The position numbers were made by a program, and so were the translations under genes. Below, in pieces: positions 1 to 61,400 of a DNA stretch of 63,499 nucleotides. Below the pieces are notes generated by a model. It made no database searches and had not been told where the DNA came from. It saw only the letters and a program-made list of their open reading frames with translations. Numbering within the stretch: position 1 is the stretch's first letter; each line of letters starts with the position of its first letter. The stretch comes from Candidatus Campbellbacteria bacterium (GTDB lineage Bacteria; Patescibacteriota; Minisyncoccia; Phycocordibacterales; JABAAK01): assembly GCA_028817035.1 (NCBI GenBank), contig JAPPQH010000005.1:1-63499 (forward strand), given 5' to 3'.

Positions 1-80
1 TTGCCGAGCCTGCGAGGCAAGTCAAGCGAGTGGCGAAGCCACGAGCGATAATAAATAGAAGCGAACGAAGTGAGCGACTG
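1..80 (+). repeat. GC-rich two-hairpin interspersed repeat, copy R1 (cut by window edge)
   Basis: TTGCC-GAGCCTGCGA-GGCAA hairpin, GTCAAGCGAG linker, GTGGC-GAA-GCCAC hairpin, CGAGCGATAATAAATAG tail. Related copies at 14149, 34472, 48094, 48231 and 56271 (minus). Confidence 0.8.
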
Positions 81-1839: not shown

Positions 1840-4584
1840 TTATTTAACAAGAAAGTATTCTTGCGCTGCTCGGTCAATTAATTCGTTTAATCTCTCAAGC
1901 AGACTTTTGTTTTCGCTAAGTCCAACTCGCCTTACTCCTCCGCCCACGATCTTTTTAGACCGAGTTGTAGAGCTTGTTTTACTTTTGCGTTTGTTTTTGA
2001 CTTTTTCGTCTGCGGAAGAATCACCGAAGTGTTTCTTGTACACTTTGTCAAAGTGTTTTGCAGATATAGGACCGAATACTCCTGTTGAAGGAATACCGAA
2101 CCTTTTTTGACATTTGACTAATGCTCTCTTTGTGAGTGGACCAAAGTATGTGGTTTCCTCACCTTCTGAGCCGTATCCTTCCTCTGCAACCGTACAACCT
2201 TCAATGTTGAGTAGTTGCTGTAGAAGTTTGACATCTTCGCCATAGACACCTTCAAGCAAGCAACGATCAAATACTTCTGAGTGTGGGAATTCATCCCTAA
2301 CTACTGGGGTAGATGGTCTGCTTGGTGTAAGTGGTCTTGGTTTAACGACTTGAGGGGGAACTACTGGTGCTACAGGAGTTGAATAATCCATGCGAGGTGC
2401 ACAAATCCAGTTGAATGGATTTGGTACATCTTCTTGCACACAGTCGTGTCCTCTTCCGCCTCCGCCTCGTCTGGTTGGTCTCCTATCATCACCTCCTCCT
2501 GTGACTATTCCGACATTAATTCCTGGAGTAGATGTTGTAGGATTTGGATCTGGATTTGGGTTTGGGTTTGGGTTAGGATTTGGGTTGGGATTTGGGTTTG
2601 GCGTAACTCCGCCTCCGCCGCCTCCGCCGCCGCCTCCACCTCCGCCACCTCCACCTCCTCCGGTAGAAGCTTGGATTGTGCTTGTGACTGGCGTTGAGAC
2701 ATTGTTTGCAGCTGAGTTGTCAGTTGCTCTGGCACAGATTTGTTGTTCTGACGATGTTCTTGTAACAGTAACAGTTGCAGTCCTTGTGGTACTTGCTGAA
2801 GTGCCTGAAAGACCTGAAACTGCTGTGTAACCTGTTGTTCCACAACTTGCTGATGAAGCAATAACTTTGTACTCTGCTGACAAAACACCGCTTGTATCTG
2901 TTGCAGTAATCGCTACGCTTGCCTGAGTATTACTTGGCAATGTAACAATTAATCCAACTTGTGGTGCGTCAGTGTCTGCTGTGCCTCCGCCTCCACCTGA
3001 AGTAGAAGCTTGGATTGTGCTTGTGACTGGCGTTGAGACATTGTTTGCAGCTGAGTTGTCAGTTGCTCTGGCACAGATTTGTTGTTCTGACGATGTTCTT
3101 GTAACAGTAACAGTTGCAGTCCTTGTGGTACTTGCTGAAGTGCCTGAAAGACCTGAAACTGCTGTGTAACCTGTTGTTCCACAACTTGCTGATGAAGCAA
3201 TAACTTTGTACTCTGCTGACAAAACACCGCTTGTATCTGTTGCAGTAATCGCTACGCTTGCCTGAGTATTACTTGGCAATGTAACAATTAATCCAACTTG
3301 TGGTGCGTCAGTGTCTCCACCTGTTCTCGCAGGAACGGGAATGTCGTCAATAGCAGGGTTACCTGCTGCATCAATAGACCTCAAACAAATTTTGCTTATT
3401 TGAGCTTGCTGATTAACATCCACCCTTCCAGTTCTTACAGATGTCCCTCTACGAGTTCGGGAATCGTAATTACCAGATAGAGTTATGTCCTGATTGTATG
3501 CTAATGAACTTGCAGATGGACATGCCTGACCTTGCGAATTCACTATTGTGTATTTCGCATCTCTGATACCAAATCCGTTGGTATCTGTTACCGTAAATGC
3601 CAATCTGGACACACCCGGTGACGGTGATGGAAGTGGGGTGTTATATCCGCCAATTACTGGAGGAGTTGTATCAATTCCTCCCAGTCTTCCTGAGGTCACC
3701 CTGTAGTACACATTTCCAGAGTCAGCGGTAAGTCTAAGACAAAAATGCTTGTTGTTGTCATTCTCGCTGTCCTGATGAAGTGTATCAATCTGAGTCTCTC
3801 CACCTGACAATGTTGTAACCACTACTCCTACAAATGAGCTGGTTGAGCTACACTGTGAAGTGCTACTAACCAAAGTATAGCCTGCACTGGTTATCCTTTC
3901 AGAAAACTCTCCACTATTAATTGTAATCCTAGTCCTGGCTCTTGTACGAGGTGTCTGCGGAAGAACGATGTTTATAACAGTAGCATGTGTTCCACCGTGA
4001 ATTCTCTGAGAAGGTGGTAATTGAGCAGGTTGTGCTTGCGGAACTGCTGGCTGTTGCTGTGGCTGTTGAACCTGTTGTGCTTGTGGAACTGCTGGCTGTT
4101 GAGTAGCAGATGGTGACTGGCTCAATTGAGCAGGCACTTCTGGTGTTTCTTCAGCTGGTTGTTCAGTTTCCTCTGCTGGTTGTTCAGTCTTTTCAGCAAC
4201 TTTTTCAGTTTCCTCTGCTGGCTGTTCTGCTGGCTGTTCTGTCTCTTCAACCGCCTCTTCGGCTGGCTGTTCAGTTTCCTCTTGATTTACTTGTTCGTTT
4301 TCAACGATGTCGTCCGCCTCATCTTCTTGTTCAGTTACACCTTGTGGTGCGTCCTGATTTTCAAGAGAATCCGCATCGTCGTTGTCAATATTAGGTTGTT
4401 GATTTGTTTGAGCACGATCGTCCACGCTTCCCACCACAGTCTCTTTTTCTTCAGTTTTTGTTTCTTTAACTTCTGAATTAGGTGCGAGAGGAGCGGGACT
4501 TTGTGCCAATGATGGCACGGCTATTGTGAGTGCAATTAATATACCCACAAAAGCAATTGTCGCGCTCTTTAAATTTGCGCTCAT
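1840..4584 (-). CDS. Secreted repetitive surface protein with C-terminal peptidoglycan-binding (PG_binding_1-like) domain
   Basis: Signal peptide MSANLKSATIAFVGILIALTIAVPSLA, an E/Q/P-rich acidic region, two identical 113-aa Ig-like repeats, G18 and (NP)n tracts, and a C-terminal LLQQLLN...FGPLTKRALVKCQKRFGIPSTGVFG motif. Confidence 0.8.
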   Translation of the reverse strand: MSANLKSATIAFVGILIALTIAVPSLAQSPAPLAPNSEVKETKTEEKETVVGSVDDRAQTNQQPNIDNDDADSLENQDAPQGVTEQEDEADDIVENEQVNQEETEQPAEEAVEETEQPAEQPAEETEKVAEKTEQPAEETEQPAEETPEVPAQLSQSPSATQQPAVPQAQQVQQPQQQPAVPQAQPAQLPPSQRIHGGTHATVINIVLPQTPRTRARTRITINSGEFSERITSAGYTLVSSTSQCSSTSSFVGVVVTTLSGGETQIDTLHQDSENDNNKHFCLRLTADSGNVYYRVTSGRLGGIDTTPPVIGGYNTPLPSPSPGVSRLAFTVTDTNGFGIRDAKYTIVNSQGQACPSASSLAYNQDITLSGNYDSRTRRGTSVRTGRVDVNQQAQISKICLRSIDAAGNPAIDDIPVPARTGGDTDAPQVGLIVTLPSNTQASVAITATDTSGVLSAEYKVIASSASCGTTGYTAVSGLSGTSASTTRTATVTVTRTSSEQQICARATDNSAANNVSTPVTSTIQASTSGGGGGTADTDAPQVGLIVTLPSNTQASVAITATDTSGVLSAEYKVIASSASCGTTGYTAVSGLSGTSASTTRTATVTVTRTSSEQQICARATDNSAANNVSTPVTSTIQASTGGGGGGGGGGGGGGGGGGVTPNPNPNPNPNPNPNPNPDPNPTTSTPGINVGIVTGGGDDRRPTRRGGGGRGHDCVQEDVPNPFNWICAPRMDYSTPVAPVVPPQVVKPRPLTPSRPSTPVVRDEFPHSEVFDRCLLEGVYGEDVKLLQQLLNIEGCTVAEEGYGSEGEETTYFGPLTKRALVKCQKRFGIPSTGVFGPISAKHFDKVYKKHFGDSSADEKVKNKRKSKTSSTTRSKKIVGGGVRRVGLSENKSLLERLNELIDRAAQEYFLVK
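2663..3316. repeat. Tandem duplication, 339-bp period, 315 bp identical by eye (2663-2977 = 3002-3316)
   Basis: I compared the two stretches line by line. They encode two identical 113-aa modules of the surface protein. Confidence 0.85.
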
Positions 4585-4806
4585 AGTAATAATAACTTTG
4601 TTTTTCTTAATTGTTAGACAATAAGACAGTGAAAATATAGAACTGTCTTTGAGATCCAATATAAGATCGTAGAATCTCTAAGAAAGACCATTTGGTAAGA
4701 ACAATAGAAAAAACAAGGTTATTAATTACCTTATTTATGTAAAAGAACAGTGTATCTATATGTTATCATTATTTCATAAAAAAGTCAATAGCCACAGCAA
4801 ATAGGG

Positions 4807-8784: not shown

Positions 8785-8858
8785 GCGAATGTAGCTCAGT
8801 TGGTTAGAGCACTCCACTGATAATGGAGAGGTCGTAGGTTCAAATCCTACCATTCGCA
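8785..8858 (+). tRNA. tRNA-Ile (anticodon GAU)
   Basis: GCGAATG acceptor, CTCCA-CTGATAA-TGGAG anticodon arm, GTAGG-TTCAAAT-CCTAC T arm. Confidence 0.9.
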
Positions 8859-9080
8859 CAAACATTTCGCTTAACACACAAAATAAAAGGAGTTCTGGCT
8901 CGCTACCGACAGAACCAATCGCGATAGCGATTTGGGTTTTGCGAAGCAAAACTTGGCGGGTGGAGCAGCGAGCGACAGCGAGCGCCGGAACCAAAACAAA
9001 AATGTATAATTTCTTTAACATTTTTGTTTTGGTTTGGTACCGTCAAGTGAGATTCCTACCATTCGCACAAACATTTCGCT
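8845..9080 (+). mobile_element. 182-bp hairpin-rich insert flanked by a perfect 27-bp duplication of the tRNA-Ile 3' end
   Basis: TCCTACCATTCGCACAAACATTTCGCT occurs at 8845-8871 and 9054-9080. The insert holds a GTTTTGCGAAGCAAAAC hairpin, a GAGCGACAGCGAG motif and a 15-bp stem (CCAAAACAAAAATGT / ACATTTTTGTTTTGG). Confidence 0.6.
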
Positions 9081-11527: not shown

Positions 11528-11704
11528 GACATATTTTTTTCAATACAAAATACAAAACATCAGTTTATGTTTTCTTTTGTTCCGTCCAACCGCCGATAAC
11601 GTTATTTCGGAAAAACGGGCACATATTTTGAGACATTAGTGCCATTGTCTCAGCGATTTCTCGCTGATCAACCTATTCACTTACGCGAAAAATTGCGTAA
11701 GAAA

Positions 11705-13160
<1,456 letters not shown>

Positions 13161-13295
13161 ATTGAATAACGGTTGAGCGGAACAAAAGAAAACACAAATT
13201 ATTATTTGAGCTCTTTAAGACTGGTTGCATTTTGTATTGAACAAAAATATGTTAAAGATCTTCCCTGCTCTCCTACAAAGAAAGCAAGGACTTTC

Positions 13296-13345: not shown

Positions 13346-13374
13346 TTGACATAGAACAACCAATGGTGTATATA
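13346..13374 (+). promoter_or_regulatory. Promoter of the Cys-rich protein gene, divergent from the 16S promoter
   Basis: TTGACA (13346-13351), 17-nt spacer ending in TG, TATATA (13369-13374). Confidence 0.55.
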
Positions 13375-13416
13375 ACTTTTAGGTTCTTTTTAGGAAAAAC
13401 AAAGGAGGTATCCAAG

Positions 13417-14085
13417 ATGACCACGCAAAATGCTGGGCATCAAGGATGCCCAGGCGGAGAGAAGAAAGAAGAGGAAGGAAAGAAGGGTGTGTGGTGCTAT
13501 TGTAAGAAGTGTAAAGGATGGAGGGAGCACTGCGCACATGGTCTTTGTAAGCTTTGCTACAATAAGCAACGGAAGGCGAGAGAGTTCCTATGCCCAGGGT
13601 GTAAAAGATGGAGGGAATACTGCGCACACGGTTTCTGCAAGAGTTGCTACAACAAGCAATGTTGTAAGGCGAGAGAGTTCCTATGCCCAGGATGTGAAAG
13701 ATGGAGGGAATACTGCGCACACGGTTTCTGCAAGAGTTGCTACAACAAGAAACGGAAGGCGATAGAGCTCCTATGTCTAGGGTGTGAAGAACAGAGGGAG
13801 CACTGCGCACACAAACTCTGTCGTCGGTGTTACAAAAAAGTTCGGCGCCTAGCCAAAAAAGAAGGGCTGACAGTGAAAAAATTTTTGGCAAAGGAAGGAG
13901 CGAAGATATTACCATTTGCACCTTCACCGCCACGACCAAAGTCATCAAAAGCGAAAAAGGGTAACAAGCTTTTGACAAAAAAAGAAATGTCGTTGCCAAA
14001 AGAACAAAGGGTGAAACTCATCAAAGAAAGAAGGCTATCTCTCATCAAAAATGCTGTTGAGAGGTATCAATTGCCAAAATATTAA
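13417..14085 (+). CDS. Basic protein with four tandem CxxC-x6-CxH-xx-CxxC zinc-binding modules and a Lys-rich tail
   Basis: ATG at 13417 preceded by CAAAGGAGGTATCCAAG. Four repeats of C..C......CAHG.C..CY, and a 93-bp near-identical DNA duplication from about 13578 and 13671. Confidence 0.75.
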   Translation: MTTQNAGHQGCPGGEKKEEEGKKGVWCYCKKCKGWREHCAHGLCKLCYNKQRKAREFLCPGCKRWREYCAHGFCKSCYNKQCCKAREFLCPGCERWREYCAHGFCKSCYNKKRKAIELLCLGCEEQREHCAHKLCRRCYKKVRRLAKKEGLTVKKFLAKEGAKILPFAPSPPRPKSSKAKKGNKLLTKKEMSLPKEQRVKLIKERRLSLIKNAVERYQLPKY

Positions 14086-14128: not shown

Positions 14129-14148
14129 CCCCAACTCTGCCTCCAACT

Positions 14149-14236
14149 CCGCGACCCTGCGAGCAAAACCAAGCGAGTGGCGGAGCCACGAGCGATAATG
14201 AATAATGAATAAGGAGGGGCTCGCGGAGCGAGCCCC
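14149..14236 (+). repeat. GC-rich interspersed repeat, copy R2
   Basis: CCTGCGAGCAAAACCAAGCGAGTGGCGGAGCCACGAGCGATAATGAATAATGAATAAGG, then a GGGGCTCGC-GGA-GCGAGCCCC hairpin. Confidence 0.75.
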
Positions 14237-14278
14237 GGGGGGTTGACAAATCTTGCGACTTGGTATACCATATATATT

Positions 14279-14390
14279 GAGGGTCGGAGAGTTCTCCAAC
14301 CTTTCGGGATGGGGGACTAAAAATCCCGTTAAAAGTCCCCTAGCGGGTGTGTGGAGACTAGCAACCTCTCCACCACCCGCTTAATCTTTT
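14279..14390 (+). ncRNA. Unassigned small structured RNA of about 110 nt with a predicted pseudoknot
   Basis: Promoter TTGACA (14243-14248), 17-nt spacer, TACCAT (14266-14271). Closing helices GGGU/ACCC and GGAGAG/CUCUCC. The loop of hairpin CGGGA/UCCCG (GGGGACU, 14312-14318) pairs with AGUCCCC (14334-14340). 3' CUUUUUA. Confidence 0.5.
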
Positions 14391-17467: not shown

Positions 17468-17474
17468 GGGATCG

Positions 17475-34308: not shown

Positions 34309-34947
34309 ATGTTACACAAAATACATAATTATATCAACACCGATATTTCGTTAAATCATAAATTTTTCAAAAACAAGGGTGCCGTTCGTGTTGCCCGCGC
34401 TCTCTTGGGCAAGGCAATCATAATTCACAGGTTGGAGGGTGTGAGTCCAATTGGAAAGACCGAATACGACCTTGCCGAGCTTGCGAGGCAAGTCAAGCGA
34501 GTGGCGGAGCCGCGAGCGATAATAAATAAGGTAGCAATAATAACAGAAACAGAGGCATATACACAAAAGGATGAGGCATCGCATTCTTTTCGTGGAAAAA
34601 CTGAAAGAAACAAAAGCATGTTTCTCAGAGCTGGCTATTCATATGTATATCTCATATATGGCGTCCATCACTGCCTTAATATAGTAGCCGAGAAAGAAGG
34701 GGTCGGATCTGCCGTTTTGATAAGAGGGGTGATTCTGAAAGAAGGAGAAAAAGAAAGGAAAATAGCAGGACCTGGCAGGGTCTGTAAGGAACTTAAAATC
34801 AGCAGAAAACACGATGGAATTGATTTGCTTGATATACAAAGCCCTATATTTATAGCAGATGTTGGAATATCAGCGAAAAATATCAAAAGATCGGAAAGAA
34901 TCGGCATCTCAAAAGGAAAAGAGAAGAAATGGAGATTCATCGCCTAA
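34309..34947 (+). CDS. mpg: DNA-3-methyladenine glycosylase (MPG/AAG family) carrying an in-frame repeat insertion
   Basis: VARALLGK, ITETEAY, ASHSFRG, GYSYVYLIYGVHHCLNIV motifs. Residues LAELARQVKRVAEPRAIINK are encoded by repeat copy R3. Confidence 0.8.
   Translation: MLHKIHNYINTDISLNHKFFKNKGAVRVARALLGKAIIIHRLEGVSPIGKTEYDLAELARQVKRVAEPRAIINKVAIITETEAYTQKDEASHSFRGKTERNKSMFLRAGYSYVYLIYGVHHCLNIVAEKEGVGSAVLIRGVILKEGEKERKIAGPGRVCKELKISRKHDGIDLLDIQSPIFIADVGISAKNIKRSERIGISKGKEKKWRFIA
34472..34531 (+). repeat. GC-rich interspersed repeat, copy R3, 60 bp, inside the mpg CDS
   Basis: Near-identical to 1-60 of the window: TTGCCGAGCTTGCGAGGCAAGTCAAGCGAGTGGCGGAGCCGCGAGCGATAATAAATAAG. Confidence 0.85.
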
Positions 34948-35010
34948 GGGTTGATAATAGTGGGATAATAGGGGGTTGACAGATGGTTGGCTTGGGTGTA
35001 AGATACTAAA

Positions 35011-35395
35011 CAGATGGGGATTGGAAATCGCCCAAAAATGCGATTCTCCAACAAACCCAACCGATCTCTAAACTCCAAATACAACCAGTTGCTCTGAAGG
35101 GCGGTGTTTATGTTGTATTTGTCTCAGTAGAACTGAAGGCTTGTCGTTTACAGCGGCAACCTTCGGTAAATTAGCGACAGCCCTTAGTGGTTGTTTCTTG
35201 AGGTCCCCAGTAAGCAAAACTTCTGGGTAGGAATGCAGTTAAATCCAAGACTCTACTGAGGCTGAACGATGGAGAAAAGTTGAAAATCCCAACACGGTCG
35301 CAGGAGGACTGGGATATCACAATTTCTTCAAAGGACAGTGAAACTGCAGGCAGCGCGCCAATAACACTTTGTGTTAGGTGCGCTGCTTTTATTTT
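35011..35395 (+). ncRNA. Unassigned structured RNA of about 385 nt
   Basis: Promoter TTGACA (34976-34981), 17-nt spacer, TAAGAT (34999-35004). Long-range pairings 35077-35086/35111-35120 and 35123-35131/35252-35260. Terminator hairpin 35350-35386 plus a T run. Only short spurious ORFs. Confidence 0.55.
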
Positions 35396-35433
35396 TATTA
35401 TGCGAAAATGGGGGTGCGGTGAGCAAGTGGAAA

Positions 35434-35469
35434 CAAGCAAAACACCCGCGGGGGCGGGTGTTTTGCTTG
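35434..35469. other. Perfect 16-bp GC-rich hairpin
   Basis: CAAGCAAAACACCCGC-GGGG-GCGGGTGTTTTGCTTG. It is followed by repeat-like GTGGAGCCACGC / GCGGAGCCGCGC segments and a T run at about 35510. Confidence 0.6.
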
Positions 35470-35532
35470 CGGGGTGGAGCCACGCATCTGTGCGGGGCGG
35501 AGCCGCGCACTTTTTTCCATCTTTTAGATGTT

Positions 35533-47798: not shown

Positions 47799-47917
47799 AT
47801 TATTTGTTAAAAGGACATGAACCGACTGGCTCAGAACTAATTTAATTATACCTCAAAAAGGGTCGCAGAGTGTGGAGGCGAGCGACAATAAAAAGTCGCC
47901 ACCTCGGTGGCGGAACT

Positions 47918-48004
47918 TGGTGCTCAGGAGAGGACTTGAACCTCCACGGGATTGCTCCCACACGCCCCTCAAGCGTGCGCGTCTACCAGTTCCGCCACCT
48001 GAGC
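47918..48004 (-). tRNA. tRNA-Leu (anticodon GAG) with genomically encoded CCA
   Basis: GCTCAGG acceptor, CACGC-TTGAGGG-GCGTG anticodon arm, long variable arm, then ACCA at the 3' end. It is the only tRNA in the window with encoded CCA. A terminator hairpin GCCACC-GA-GGTGGC follows. Confidence 0.88.
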
Positions 48005-48280
48005 ATATAGATATATCTTATATCATTTTGGGAATTTTGAGAAATGGGGTGGAAGCAAGCGAAATAGGTTGTAAAGGCATAAGTCCGACCGCAACGAGCC
48101 TGCGAGTTGCGTCAAGCGAGGCGGTGAAACTGCCGAGCGATAATAAAAAGTCGCCACCTGAGCATATAGATATATTCTATATCATTTTTCTAATCTATGT
48201 ACTCCAGCCCTCAAGCGTGCGCGTCTACCCAGCGAGCCTGCGAGTTGCGTCAAGCGAACGGAGTGGGCGACTAAAATATA
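48005..48280. repeat. Mosaic of tRNA-Leu(GAG) gene fragments interleaved with repeat copies R4 and R4b
   Basis: The 5' acceptor plus upstream region (47994-48030) is re-found at 48153-48190. The D/anticodon segment (47965-47987) is re-found at 48205-48229. R4 lies at 48094-48150 and R4b at 48231-48275. Confidence 0.7.
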
Positions 48281-48540
48281 TACTCTATTCCTTGCAATAG
48301 GTAAAAACTTACATACGGAACAAACAAGACAAAGAGGATAATCAGAAGCACATTATACACTTGTTTATCAAGGTAGCCAGCCAACCAACGATACAAATAG
48401 ACGGCAACGATACCGGCTATCACAACAGAAAGCATGGCTAATGCCCAATGTGAGTAAGTCGCAACAGGAGCACTTATCACATAAATTATGGTGACTATTG
48501 CTATTACAACGGTTCCTGTTTTTGGGTTGATATTATTCAT
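48271..48540 (-). CDS. Small membrane protein (89 aa)
   Basis: Three hydrophobic helices. Lies inside the 26-bp-repeat-flanked segment. Confidence 0.45.
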   Translation of the reverse strand: MNNINPKTGTVVIAIVTIIYVISAPVATYSHWALAMLSVVIAGIVAVYLYRWLAGYLDKQVYNVLLIILFVLFVPYVSFYLLQGIEYIF

Positions 48541-55096: not shown

Positions 55097-56209
55097 CTAT
55101 GGAAGTAATTCTAAAAGAAAAATTTTGCCTTCAGTTCGCAAAAGAGGGGTTTGGGGAAATCTGTCTGTTCCAAGATATGTCACATTGTTTATTCCAAAAT
55201 GTTTCATACTTTCAATGCTGAAAGTGTGCCCGTCAACTCTGAAATCTTCTTGGGTTGTCTTTGTCAAAGCGTTTAATGCTGCTGCCCTGTCTATTTCATG
55301 TTGAGACATTCTTGTGGTTTTTGAAAAATAATTTGAAACATCAGAATTAACGCCAATCTTTTTATAAAAAGCGACTTCGTTTTTCAGATCTTGTTTGTAT
55401 TCTGCGACCTTCTTTTTTAATTCTTCTTCAATATTAACATTATCAAGCTTAAGTTCTTCCACAATCTGCTTTCGCACAACTTCGCGAAACCTTCTGATTG
55501 CCTCTTCCTCTGAAATTCCATCAAGCTGACCTAACACATTGCCATGCCACCCTATTTGTGCCCCTGCTTCAATATACTTGTTGTCACCTGCTGGAAATAT
55601 GTAATTCGCGCAAGATGAAAAGCAGAGGGTTCGCACTCGGACATCTATCTCGTTATCATATACCCAATGACCCATATATTTTCCGTGTTTTGTGTTGCCG
55701 CCATCGGAGTTTATTATGAGTGTTTTTATTCTTTTGTTATGTCTGTTAATTGCATCTGCAAAATCAGCATATGACTTTCTGTCAATAGGTCCTATAAATT
55801 CTATGGTGTCGTTGCGAACTGAAATTTTTGCTTTGTTATGAATTATGCCGTGCCTGTCTACCCAATGACCTTCACCCTCTTCTAATATGACAGTTGGTCT
55901 GTCTTTTGATTGTGTCGGTGGGACCCTGCTTGCGACATAAGAATCTGGGACGGGCTTGCTCGTGGTGATGGGTGTTTTTGGTTTTGGTGTAGGTTGTGTC
56001 GGTGCGGGTGTTGTTGGTGCGATGTCTATTGGTGGAGGTGGTGGTGGAGTGTCGCCAACATAAATAATGTTTCCCTCGCTGTCGTATTCTATGTATTTTG
56101 AATCATCAAAGTTCAACAAGACCTCTTTATAAAACAAACCAGCGACAAAGGATAAGATTATAAATACTACAAATAAGATTATAATTGTGATAATTAACCC
56201 TTTTTTCAT
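55097..56209 (-). CDS. Hypothetical membrane-anchored protein with a Pro-rich linker
   Basis: N-terminal TM and a PPPPPPIDIAPTTPAPTQPTPKPKTP linker. The C-terminal domain weakly recalls ClpP/COG3904-like periplasmic proteins (INSDGGN...CFSSCANYIF). Confidence 0.55.
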   Translation of the reverse strand: MKKGLIITIIILFVVFIILSFVAGLFYKEVLLNFDDSKYIEYDSEGNIIYVGDTPPPPPPIDIAPTTPAPTQPTPKPKTPITTSKPVPDSYVASRVPPTQSKDRPTVILEEGEGHWVDRHGIIHNKAKISVRNDTIEFIGPIDRKSYADFADAINRHNKRIKTLIINSDGGNTKHGKYMGHWVYDNEIDVRVRTLCFSSCANYIFPAGDNKYIEAGAQIGWHGNVLGQLDGISEEEAIRRFREVVRKQIVEELKLDNVNIEEELKKKVAEYKQDLKNEVAFYKKIGVNSDVSNYFSKTTRMSQHEIDRAAALNALTKTTQEDFRVDGHTFSIESMKHFGINNVTYLGTDRFPQTPLLRTEGKIFLLELLP

Positions 56210-56270
56210 ATTTAATTACACTTTAATTATATCATTTTGTGGTTTTTGGGAAATGGGGTGGGAACACTCA

Positions 56271-56345
56271 CAGTCGCTTCGCTCCTTTCTATTTATTATC
56301 GCTCGTGGCTTCGCCACTCGCTTGATTTTGCTCGCAGGCTCGCAA
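56271..56345 (-). repeat. GC-rich interspersed repeat, copy R5 (inverted orientation)
   Basis: The reverse complement reads GCGAGCCTGCGAGCAAAATCAAGCGAGTGGCGAAGCCACGAGCGATAATAAATAGAAAGGAGCGAAGCGACTG. Confidence 0.8.
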
Positions 56346-56408
56346 AGGTCATACTCACACACTCCAATCTATTTTGTTCGCTGTGCGCAAGGCACATCTT
56401 TTATTATT

Positions 56409-56594
56409 TATGCGGAAGGGGTGGGATTTTTCACTTGCTTCGCAAGTGAAACTGTTTTCTAAACTCGCTGTCGCTCGTTAAGAAAAAAGCGCCGAACCTA
56501 TAGCCCTATCGGGCTCGTTCGAACCCACCCCATATAAAAAATAAAAGATGGTAATAAAACCATCTTTTATTTTGTATGCGGAAGGGGTGGGATT
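56409..56594 (-). mobile_element. 146-bp insert flanked by a perfect 20-bp duplication of the tRNA-Ser 3' end
   Basis: TATGCGGAAGGGGTGGGATT occurs at 56409-56428 and 56575-56594. The insert holds the tRNA terminator, an inverted T-arm fragment (56513-56535), a GAGCGACAGCGAG motif and a CACTTGC-GAA-GCAAGTG hairpin. Confidence 0.6.
56533..56568 (-). terminator. Intrinsic terminator of tRNA-Ser
   Basis: AAAAGATGGT / ACCATCTTTT stem followed by ATTTTTTAT on the minus strand. Confidence 0.7.
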
Positions 56595-58448: not shown

Positions 58449-61400
58449 CTAATTACCCAAAAAGTTTCTGAAGAAAGTTGGTCTTATTTTTACTCGCGCA
58501 AATTGGCTCACCACAGGTTTTTCATCTCTTTTACATTCCAACTCATATCTTTTTTCTGTCTCAACCCCAGAGTCTGTTGTGGCAGTGATGGTGTATATGT
58601 ATGCGCTGTCCTTATTACTCCATTTATATGCTATACCACCCGTACCCTCTGCATTGATACTCTTTTTAGTTCCTATTAGATTTTTACCAGGGTCGGCATC
58701 TGTTTTCTCAACAGTAGTAGTGATGTCATAAACACCACAAGTTAATTTTGGTTCATCCTCAGGCTCCACATCCTGAGATGTGTCTGATGGGGACCCAGTC
58801 GCTATATTAATCTTCTCTGATGACAAGAGATATCTATAAGAAACGTCATTATCAGAAGTGGTTCCCGTCTTTACCCTTACACAAACCTTCATACCGTTAT
58901 TTGTACTTATGCTCGTTGAGTATATGTTACCTTCTTTTGTAAAGTCAGTGTATGGTGATGCTGATGAACAAGCATTCTTATCAGTGGTACTACCAGGCAC
59001 AAAAGCAAATGCCACTTCCGTCACACCCTCCACATGAGAAACAACAAATTTATCATTCAAGACAGGACCTGGTTCAACATCATTTAATATTTTTACTGGT
59101 GACTCAGACAGGTACTCCCTTATATCCTCCGTGACAAGTTTTACATTATCCTCACTCCTTATCAACTGCGGCTCTGCAGCAAAACTTCCGAGAAAACCTT
59201 CCACAGAAAACTCACCGCGTATTCTTTTTGTATAAAATGGTGTGGTTAATCCACCGGCATTAGTTGGAGTTCCACAGTCCACAAAATAACGGAGTATCCC
59301 TGGAGATGCTACCCTTCCTGTACTTCCAGATGGTTTCTTCAAATCCTCTGGAGGTAAACCAAAGTTTGTCGCTGACGAAACGAGATTACCACAATCAAAA
59401 CTTACATCTATCTCATTACCAACACCAGAATCTCGGATTGAGATATCTATGAATTGTTCACCAGGATTTGGAATTATATTCACAAGGTCGCGTGGTATCA
59501 ACTGACCTTCTTCCAACCTCTCACCACCCAAACAAGAAGAGATCTCTCTGTCGGCATTTCTATCACAAAAACGGAAAAAACCAAAGTTATCACTCCAAGC
59601 CCATCCACGAAGCTCCCTCTCACCAAAAGGCGAATTTTCTCTATTACTTCTCACTACGACTTCATATTTTTTTTCTGTATTTAATGTTAATGTAGATGTA
59701 GATGTATTTGAATTGTCAAAAGAAATCCAGCCGAAATTATGGTCTTCATCCTTAAAACCCTTCACTCTCGCCCAACCTGTCAATTTGTGTACTCTGTCCT
59801 CATTAATTATCCTCGCCCTACAATCACAGGTTTGAGTAGCCGTTTCGCTGGAAGTCCGAGCATACAACTTAACACTTTTTATTTTATTATCTCGCGGACC
59901 TTGCCGACTGGCTACCAAAACCCTTGCCCCAGATGATGACAAAACAGGATTAGAACCTGCTAGACTATTACTGTCTCTTTCCCATGAATTACCTTGTTTT
60001 CTATATAAATAAACAGATTCCCTCCCTGAAAAACCACTATCAACAGCAATCGTGTTGCCCTTTACCGATACAAATTGACCTAAGTATGAAACAGACTCAA
60101 CTGTCTCTTTTTCTGGTTCTGCATCAAGGTCTGAAGTCTCATAGATATATATCGCGCTTTCCCACGATGCACCCACCACAAGAGTGTCGCCATCTATCGC
60201 GACAGACCAGCCAAACCATCGAGATGAGCTAGATGGTGGTTGACGCGGTGGTGGTTGTAATGTTTTTATTTTTGATAGTGTCTTGGCATTATAAACATAT
60301 ACTTTACCTTGACTACTATTGGTTGCAGGTGCACCCACCACAAGCGTGTCGCCATCTGTCGCGACAGAGTAACCGAAGCCCAGGACAGTGCTTGGGTCTG
60401 GTAGAGTTAGAGTCTGCATACTCCCCCATCTCCCACCTTGTTTTTTCCAGTAACGCACAGAGCCCGTATTGGTTGGTATATTACTCACACCCAATACAAT
60501 CAAGGAATCAGATATCGCCAAACTGGTTGCAGGTGTTGTATCACTATTGGTAACGAACTCAACCTCTTTTTTTGCTATTGCATCACTATCTGCCGTATCA
60601 AAAACATGAATTTTATATTTTTTAGAACTTCCTTCGGTCTCTTGAGTATCACTAAAAACAGCGACTTTATTCCCAGATGCACTTATAGAAGTTGGGCTTG
60701 TCACTTTCTCATTTTGCCTTGTCCACTCGTTGCCTGCTTCTGTTAAAACTACCAACTCGCCTTTTGATTTGCTCACCAAATAAATTTTTGGCGAAACAAA
60801 ATCAAGCAAAGACACATCATCGCCAACCCCTAAGCCAAGCTCTTCGTTTATAAAAGATCTATCTTCATCCCAACTTGGGGTAGAAGTTAAACTTCCATCG
60901 CGACAAATAGTACCACTACCAAACATACCAGTAGTAGCAGGACAATTATTAACATCTTCCTTATTAAATGAAATCTCACCGATAATAGGATTGTATGCGA
61001 TGCCACTTAACTCCGATGGACCAGGTTTATATGTTACTTTTATTTTGGAGTTGGTAGTAGTATCAAAAGGACACTTCTCGCCCCTACTATTTTCATCACA
61101 ATTAAGATACACCCAACCAACCACACTATTCCAAAGTCGCCCCACAAGATTCCAGCCGTCAGACCCAGTATCGCTCGCACTTCTGTCTAATGGCTTTGGT
61201 GGAACTGTTTTAGGAGACGATATCTGCGAAAGGGAAACTGTATTTGTCGCTATTACACAAATCTTTCTTGTCTCGGTCAAACGTATGTCCGTGATTGTTG
61301 CTGTTTTTGTTTTGCCACTAACTGTGAGTGCGGGTGTGTTGGTGTATGACGATGCGCTGGTAGGACAGCTTTGGGTGGCTGAAGTGACATATTTCCATTT

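Follow-up and report, generated by a model that had tools for sequence, protein, structure and literature searches.

An imperfect hairpin recognized on one strand is a feature of REP/REPIN-RAYT systems and of the ends of IS200/IS605 elements; the repeats are abundant in extragenic DNA close to terminators, and have been proposed to be mobilized as single-stranded DNA. The double-hairpin elements of Allomyces have a two-hairpin architecture in which the fold is conserved and the sequence varies. Mitochondrial hairpin elements are GC-rich, consist of one or two hairpins, reside in AT-rich compact genomes, between genes and near tRNA genes, and have a mobility that is inferred (PMC2800124; PMC4478555). 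Rickettsia palindromic elements (RPEs) are found between genes as well as in frame within housekeeping genes, to which they add a tolerated peptide, and classical bacterial MITEs can make in-frame fusions and supply promoters or terminators (PMC10969869). Here we describe a repeat of Candidatus Campbellbacteria that probably represents a lineage-restricted family of short, non-autonomous, selfish interspersed repeats, similar in general kind to REPs, RPEs and MITEs.

The window, i.e. the whole 63.5-kb stretch of DNA analyzed, had been predicted to contain six copies of this repeat. All six were recovered at the predicted positions and are named R1 to R6 (Table 1). The 11-mer GAGCCTGCGAG, allowing at most one mismatch, occurs six times in the window against 0.30 expected. 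We then trained a covariance model on four copies of equal length and used it, with filters disabled, to scan both strands of the entire window. The copies scored 89.5 (R6), 89.4 (R1), 86.8 (R3), 79.5 (R2), 59.3 (R4) and 33 bits (R5), and the next-best match in the window scored 12 bits. Thus, the family is sharply bounded, with six copies in the window and none between 33 and 12 bits. One copy of 54.7 bits was found on a related metagenome contig, L014. The original prediction had also listed looser relatives at 47871-47904 and 35470-35516, which are not members of the family. The latter has 12 nt in common with the repeat and is the terminator of another transcript; the former contains a fragment of the tail that is part of the tRNA-Leu terminator, its complement giving the T-run.

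Table 1. Repeat copies and associated features of the window.
Feature	Position	Strand	Description
R1	1-80	+	core 1-57, tail to 58, right arm 59-80 ending GCGACTG
R1 hairpins	core 1-57	+	hairpin 1 TTGCC/GGCAA, hairpin 2 GTGGC-GAA-GCCAC
R2	14148-14236	+	core 14148-14204, tail duplicated
Methylpurine-DNA glycosylase (MPG) gene, host of R3	34309-34947	+	PF02245, E = 2.8e-47
R3	34432-34527	+	96 nt: partial left arm and core 34472-34528
Tail-only fragment	47879-47904 (within 47871-47904)	+	CGAGCGACAATAAAAAGTCGCCACCT, 26 nt, 96% identical to R4 tail junction
R4	48049-48151	+	left arm 48049-48090, core 48091-48149
R4 hairpins	core 48091-48149	+	hairpin 1 GCAAC/GTTGC, hairpin 2 GGCGG-TGAAA-CTGCC
Rearranged tRNA-Leu pieces between R4 and R5	48152-48229	+	5' end and -10 region from 48152-48175 on; internal segment 48208-48229
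R5	48230-48272	+	hairpin 2 and tail missing, right arm (ACGGAGTGGGCGACT) retained
R6, most complete copy (inverted)	56272-56382	-	left arm 56382-56347, core 56346-56290, right arm 56289-56272

The element proved to be longer than the 60-75 nt originally proposed: independent loci share a left arm of ~40 nt and, on the other side, a right arm of ~22 nt, giving a full form of ~120 nt around a core of 57-59 nt. In order, its parts are the left arm (GTGGAAGCGAAAT..ATAGGTTG..GACC; present in R4, R6, twice in L014 and partly in R3), hairpin 1, the linker GTCAA, hairpin 2, an A-rich tail (GATAATAAATAG) and the right arm (AAGCGAACGAAGTGAGCGACT; present in R1, R5 and R6). No terminal inverted repeats of at least 8 nt were found in three full copies, and the arms are unpaired in the folds. 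The ends of the element look like imperfect direct repeats, the tail resembling the start of the left arm, and in R6 AAATAGAnnGGAG is present twice, 80 nt apart. The 13-nt direct repeat of R6 is internal to the element, because it is found again at other loci. A search for target-site duplications gave no clear one, the junctions in the MPG gene having a trivial AGG alone. The sequence GCCACCTG occurs five times in the window (positions 82, 47994, 48153, 11261 and 63481) against 1.15 expected and directly borders the right ends of R1 and R4, where it could reflect a target preference or recombination microhomology.

Every stem sequence that had been quoted for hairpins 1 and 2 is correct; R3 has TTGCC/GGCAA and GTGGC-GGA-GCCGC, and R6 has TTTGC/GCAAA and GTGGC-GAA-GCCAC. 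The proposal of two hairpins per copy holds for the intact copies, but R2 and R5 lack a working 5' arm of hairpin 1 and R5 also lacks hairpin 2. In R2 this arm is gone and the top G-C pair is broken (GACCCTGCGAG). In R5 the arm is replaced where the copy meets an internal tRNA-Leu fragment, and hairpin 2 and the tail are missing because an internal deletion has joined AAGCGA of the linker to AAGCGA of the right arm. In L014, a partial copy ends right after the 5' arm. Three copies are truncated or internally deleted.

The minimum free energy fold of the written strand was identical in all intact copies, (((((..(....)..))))).....((..(((((...)))))..)), and equals the proposed two-hairpin fold. 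Covariation of the stems, as originally predicted, was borne out: in a model-guided alignment (i.e. fitted to the covariance model) of seven copies, the six of the window and that of L014, which together represent only three stem types, 94.3% of the pair cells were standard versus 77.9% in shuffles, with 0 of 500 shuffles reaching 94.3%. Seven of the 13 pairs had changed on both sides, a number matched by one of 500 shuffles, and structures shifted by 1-3 columns were 19-48% paired. The strand assigned by the original prediction is favored by all G·U wobbles (all three wobble cells are G·U on the written strand) and by the CGAG blocks; folding energies were -14.7 to -19.8 kcal/mol for the sense versus -11.4 to -15.2 kcal/mol for the antisense strand. 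Compared with shuffled sequences the stability is ordinary (z-scores of -0.8 to -2.0 for RNA folding and close to 0 for DNA folding), which counts against a selfish repeat. Since these z-scores are unremarkable, the structural case depends on covariation, and thermodynamic stability was dropped as evidence for it.

Classically, tandem sheared G·A pairs form where CGAG faces CGAG, in RNA as well as in DNA. Each core contains four invariant CGAG blocks at fixed positions, for which the fold predicts tandem G·A pairs. The segments between the stems had been described as conserved and single-stranded. They are conserved, but in the predicted fold most of them are not single-stranded: the CGAG/CGAG blocks form 2x2 G·A/A·G internal loops, one surrounding the CCTG or CTTG loop atop hairpin 1 and the other at the foot of hairpin 2. 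The Watson-Crick stems between the blocks are free to vary in sequence while complementarity is kept, so that the folding strand reads stem-GA-G(CYTG)C-GA-stem, followed by GC-GA-stem-loop-stem-GA-GC. No variation is seen in loop or linker, not even between the window and L014. Judging from these comparisons of the copies, the predicted fold is real and under constraint on one strand.

Such constraint is what a functional structured RNA would display, either a small RNA family or a cis-acting site for processing, stability or protein binding, transcribed from the written strand. The 94% pairing, the restriction of G·U wobbles and tandem G·A to one strand and the loop and linker kept even across two genomes all fit that explanation; the two copies unable to form hairpin 1 and the one without hairpin 2 do not. 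The recurrence of CGAG four times per core at fixed positions would also suit a DNA site with a function for the host, bound by a nucleoid, topoisomerase or recombination protein (cf. REP/BIME) or serving as raw material for terminators. The strand asymmetry of G·U and G·A argues instead for a single-stranded fold, not for duplex recognition.

The original prediction had not recognized the family, and no described RNA family or repeat matched it in our searches either. At gathering scores, the 16S rRNA and tRNAs were the Rfam matches passing in the whole window, and no repeat copy was among them; at E<=1 over the whole window and at E<=10 no match overlapped a copy, and the best Rfam match to R6 with lax filters reached 14 bits versus a gathering score of 37. 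An exact DNA pattern gave 10 matches in 185,579 species genomes, all of them chance matches in GC-rich genomes without hairpins or tail, three chance matches in JGI metagenomes and none in viral contigs; blastn against phages and plasmids gave none. When peptides from three frames were used in a word-indexed search of 5.8 billion protein clusters, the MPG protein of the window alone was retrieved, and a full HMMER search with the 32-aa insert of this protein as query, against 1.84 billion representatives, again returned it alone. The known distribution of the family is the organism of the window and one relative (L014) only. Lack of supported covariation and a match to a known family were the two findings named beforehand as speaking against the family; covariation was supported, and no known family matched. 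Both the missing Rfam match and the absence from all other genomes and metagenomes searched weigh against a functional RNA.

Copy R3 lies within the MPG gene. It comprises 32 codons, in frame and without a stop, and the ORF is uninterrupted; the translation is LEGVSPIGKTEYDLAELARQVKRVAEPRAIIN. The other two forward frames of the element in R3 contain stops (TAA TAA and TAG), and R3 persists in the MPG gene because it is read in the sole stop-free frame. Alignment with 25 other homologues revealed ~28-32 extra residues between LLGK.. and ..ITETEAY, and none of the 25 has the insert. Homologues including human AAG have 0-9 residues where the MPG protein of the window has ~32 more; in the comparison with human AAG itself 34 residues of the query stand against 8 in the solved chain. 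In an AlphaFold model (mean pLDDT 84.8) the insert, with a pLDDT of ~52 versus 84-98 elsewhere, is located between strands 36-42 and 71-84. According to this model R3 adds 32 residues to the turn of a β-hairpin.

The only close relative that we found, P0002, is 82% identical and is encoded on L014, a JGI contig of 1.5 kb. The flanks are 84-89% identical between L014 and the window, and the L014 insert has the same junctions as R3, measures 177 nt (59 codons), is stop-free and holds the extra partial copy. An intron, an intein or translational bypass is unnecessary to explain the insert, as the ORF is open through it in both genomes. The L014 copy has the CTTG loop variant in common with R3; its stem 1, however, is GCAAC/GTTGC versus TTGCC/GGCAA in R3, and its hairpin 2 is extended by a further G·A/A·G block. 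The insert peptides of the window and L014 differ as a result of a change of reading frame in the interior of the element. Copies within the genome are 91-95% alike, R3 being 95% identical to its paralogue R1, whereas the two same-site copies of the MPG genes (R3 and L014) are 75% alike. That paralogues resemble each other more than same-site copies do points to turnover or gene conversion, not to locus-by-locus conservation. We saw no close relative with an empty site, so that movement is deduced from distant homologues only. Being part of the MPG mRNA, R3 is transcribed for certain, in line with a functional RNA; its translation within a housekeeping enzyme speaks against one.

Downstream of this gene, a promoter-like TTGACA-17-TAAGAT lies just past the MPG stop codon, and at 35489-35509 there is a terminator with a T-run behind it (34976-35515, + strand). 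The ~480 nt enclosed by the two contain no Pfam-bearing ORF and no Rfam match and are ~84% conserved in L014 (1160-1525); the region is a candidate for an unannotated non-coding RNA. Likewise, a strong promoter-like TTGACA-17-TACCAT just past R2 (14243-14390, + strand) leads into ~120 nt of non-coding DNA that runs to the stop codon of the convergent ychF gene, and this stretch may specify a small RNA or an antisense transcript.

The genes of the window are ordinary chromosomal ones, mostly on the minus strand, and include those for CTP synthase, FtsEX, 16S rRNA, YchF, UvrABC, LysRS, ribonucleotide reductase, AhpC, type IV pilus proteins and L19. A 38-nt inverted repeat (11555-13207), probably a processing stem, encloses the 16S rRNA gene (11707-13163, minus strand), which has no adjacent 23S gene or spacer tRNAs in the window. 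ARAGORN reports an 86-nt 'tRNA-His' at 17474-17559 on the minus strand, with anticodon atg at position 31 and an Rfam tRNA score of only 48 bits, which makes it an unusual tRNA or else a tRNA-like gene. Three large genes (1840-4659, 13363-14085 and 58449-63485) have internal tandem repeats: 300-nt matched stretches, 339 nt apart and with 98% identity, in the gene of a PG_binding-domain protein, three ~90-nt units in that of a zinc-ribbon/RING-like protein, and repeats 1173 nt apart in that of a 1678-aa Big_12/FG-GAP protein.

The original prediction placed most copies next to tRNA genes or terminators. Copies do lie beside these, but R3, the one intragenic copy among the six, is within a coding gene. 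R1 adjoins the 3' end of tRNA-Thr, which is on the opposite strand, and R6 has the tRNA-Ser terminator region on one side and, on the other, the promoter of gene 55097-56209. R2, R3 and R6 have the orientation of neighboring transcription and R1, R4 and R5 the opposite one. Accordingly, three copies are co-oriented as would suit a functional RNA; the other three are antisense to every neighboring gene, and the copies are not bracketed by a consensus promoter or terminator. Taken with the points given above, we regard a functional RNA as unlikely. The vicinity of tRNA genes and terminators would agree with a DNA site of use to the host, as would the observation that two terminator-like sites of the minus strand, those of tRNA-Leu and ychF, draw their T-run from the complement of the tail. 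The ychF site consists of a separate GC hairpin at 14216-14236 in the region of R2 with the T-rich complement of the tail; more generally, the terminator-like sites near copies are built from the tail and a different hairpin. On neither strand is the element a terminator in its own right, as no U-run follows the hairpins, and the intragenic and truncated copies have no obvious role, which makes a host DNA site improbable.

Several copies coincide with rearrangements. In R4 the tail runs straight into a fragment that duplicates part of the tRNA-Leu 5' end, and at the tRNA-Leu locus (47860-48300) the 5' end with its -10 region and an internal segment have been duplicated in swapped order; the terminator of the intact tRNA-Leu gene reuses a tRNA 5'-end fragment fused to the repeat tail. 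The copies are sites of deletion and segmental duplication. Assembly breaks also occur at copies: the window starts inside R1, whose left side is lost at the contig start, and a 100%-identical Logan contig stops 13 nt from R2, so that assemblers see a repeat with more copies elsewhere in the genome. Attempts to extend the sequence to the left of R1 yielded no record for the DUF1360 protein, and Logan contigs that were 100% identical but shorter. On the minus strand, a block of ~40 nt is common to the promoters at 48019-48055 (tRNA-Leu) and 56228-56268 (gene 55097-56209) and reads CCACCCCATTTCyCAAAA..CAAAATGATATAAk, with an extended -10.

The 3' ends of two other tRNA genes are present as exact direct repeats, of 26 nt for tRNA-Ile (8846 and 9055) and of 19 nt for tRNA-Ser (56410 and 56576). 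These duplications flank islands of ~150-185 nt (8846-9080 and 56410-56594) that have CGAGCGACAGCGAG, TTGCGAAGCAA and ACAAAATAAAAG in common and that may have been left behind by integrase-type insertions or may form a second family of small repeats. They raise the idea that the repeats are scars of tRNA-targeting integrative elements, being the att-proximal arm of degraded islands. Besides the exact duplications, the tRNA-Leu fragments flanking R4 and R5 and a relationship of GC-rich motifs of the two islands to the repeat would fit. We nevertheless consider this very unlikely, as R3 and R2 are not at tRNA genes, an integrase is absent from the window, the tRNA-Ile island has no true copy (best model score 9.7 bits), and tRNA-Leu is duplicated at its 5' end rather than the 3' end used by integrases.

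In its behavior, by analogy, the double-hairpin repeat is closest to RPEs. Both are short hairpin repeats, GC-richer than the small AT-rich genome they inhabit and without a transposase of their own, and both enter genes in frame in a way that fits the protein fold (here 96 nt and 177 nt, stop-free multiples of 3). RPEs were compared by description, no sequence relationship being expected, and they differ in being palindromes of ~100-150 bp, each family with a conserved encoded peptide. The present element instead has two short hairpins, independent of each other and containing tandem G·A blocks; its insert peptide is not conserved, and one copy in six is intragenic. In form, the nearest analogue would be the mitochondrial double-hairpin elements, which together with repetitive hairpin-forming elements and yeast GC clusters are also found inside rRNA and protein genes; these are organellar rather than bacterial and have no sequence relationship to the repeat. 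To our knowledge, no tandem-G·A signature has been described for mitochondrial hairpin elements.

REP/REPIN sequences and IS200/IS605 ends are similarly short imperfect hairpins in which stem sequence varies and structure is kept. The repeat differs from REP/REPIN in having no conserved GTAG-type 5' tetranucleotide and no inverted pairs, its copies being singletons or direct neighbors (R4 and R5) and one being intragenic; moreover, there is no RAYT or TnpA gene in the 63.5-kb window. With MITEs such as Correia, ERIC, RUP and BOX it shares being small, non-coding and interspersed. MITEs, however, are defined by terminal inverted repeats and target-site duplications, whereas here we found no such inverted repeat and no clear duplication, the ends resembling imperfect direct repeats. 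The REP model was rejected on the tetranucleotide and the pairing of copies, and the MITE model on the terminal inverted repeats. Other candidates were rejected as follows. Hairpin 2 is followed by the A-rich tail and, on the other strand, the T-rich stretch precedes the hairpins, so that neither strand has the U-run of an intrinsic terminator. Integron attC sites were dismissed as the ends have no R''/L''...L'/R' core sites (GTTRRRY) and the window has no cassette array or integrase. For a DGR or retron, there is no reverse transcriptase in the window, and the differences between copies are not adenine-specific.

Altogether, the mixed orientation, the defective copies, the insert in a gene, the likeness of paralogues, the rearrangements and the assembly breaks lead us to favor a selfish repeat. 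The original step from covariation to a functional structured RNA, as opposed to a repeat, is not borne out: the in-frame MPG insert is absent from all other homologues, and mixed orientation, truncated or deleted copies, paralogue likeness and contig ends at copies oppose it as well. The original wording, a structured RNA or ssDNA motif, loses its first half, but the second is compatible with a selfish repeat. Several points besides ordinary stability count against this reading. The comparison covered seven copies of three stem types, neither terminal inverted repeats nor a clear target-site duplication were found, and close relatives showed no empty site. Pfam scans detected no transposase, integrase, reverse transcriptase or HUH nuclease in the 63.5-kb window. 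In addition, the folding strand is the C-rich (+) strand in five of six copies, a bias (GC skew; n=6) opposite to the lagging-strand-template expectation of IS200/IS605-type elements.

For a selfish repeat, covariation would arise because only copies with an intact fold propagate, rather than because each locus makes a functional RNA. Copies within the genome are kept similar to one another or are replaced. Spread would depend on a folded single strand, most probably ssDNA on which an enzyme from another part of the genome acts; another route would be recombination or template-switch copying at microhomologies. Breakpoints would cluster at the 5' side of hairpin 1. The kept pairing and invariant CGAG blocks could equally well reflect a host function. 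More tentatively, and with the odds against it, the family may represent a new class of structure-specified mobile element, with CGAG/CGAG G·A modules, free stems, a single-stranded intermediate and in-frame colonization of genes, or else a protein-binding RNA module that has spread through the genome. If so, there would be a copying enzyme that has not yet been tied to any repeat family, in an uncultivated bacterium with a small genome.

The family is new and narrowly distributed, and its in-frame insert and G·A-module architecture make it moderately noteworthy. In-frame entry of small interspersed repeats into genes is best known from Rickettsia; the RPE-like entry described here would add an unrelated case from a reduced genome of quite another kind, suggesting that this route of protein and genome change is more general. 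The contrast between invariant G·A modules and freely covarying stems may show what the mobilizing machinery reads. In practice, covariation by itself cannot tell functional RNAs apart from selfish repeats that depend on their structure. Finally, copies of this repeat break short-read assemblies and rearrange tRNA loci in the genome that carries them.
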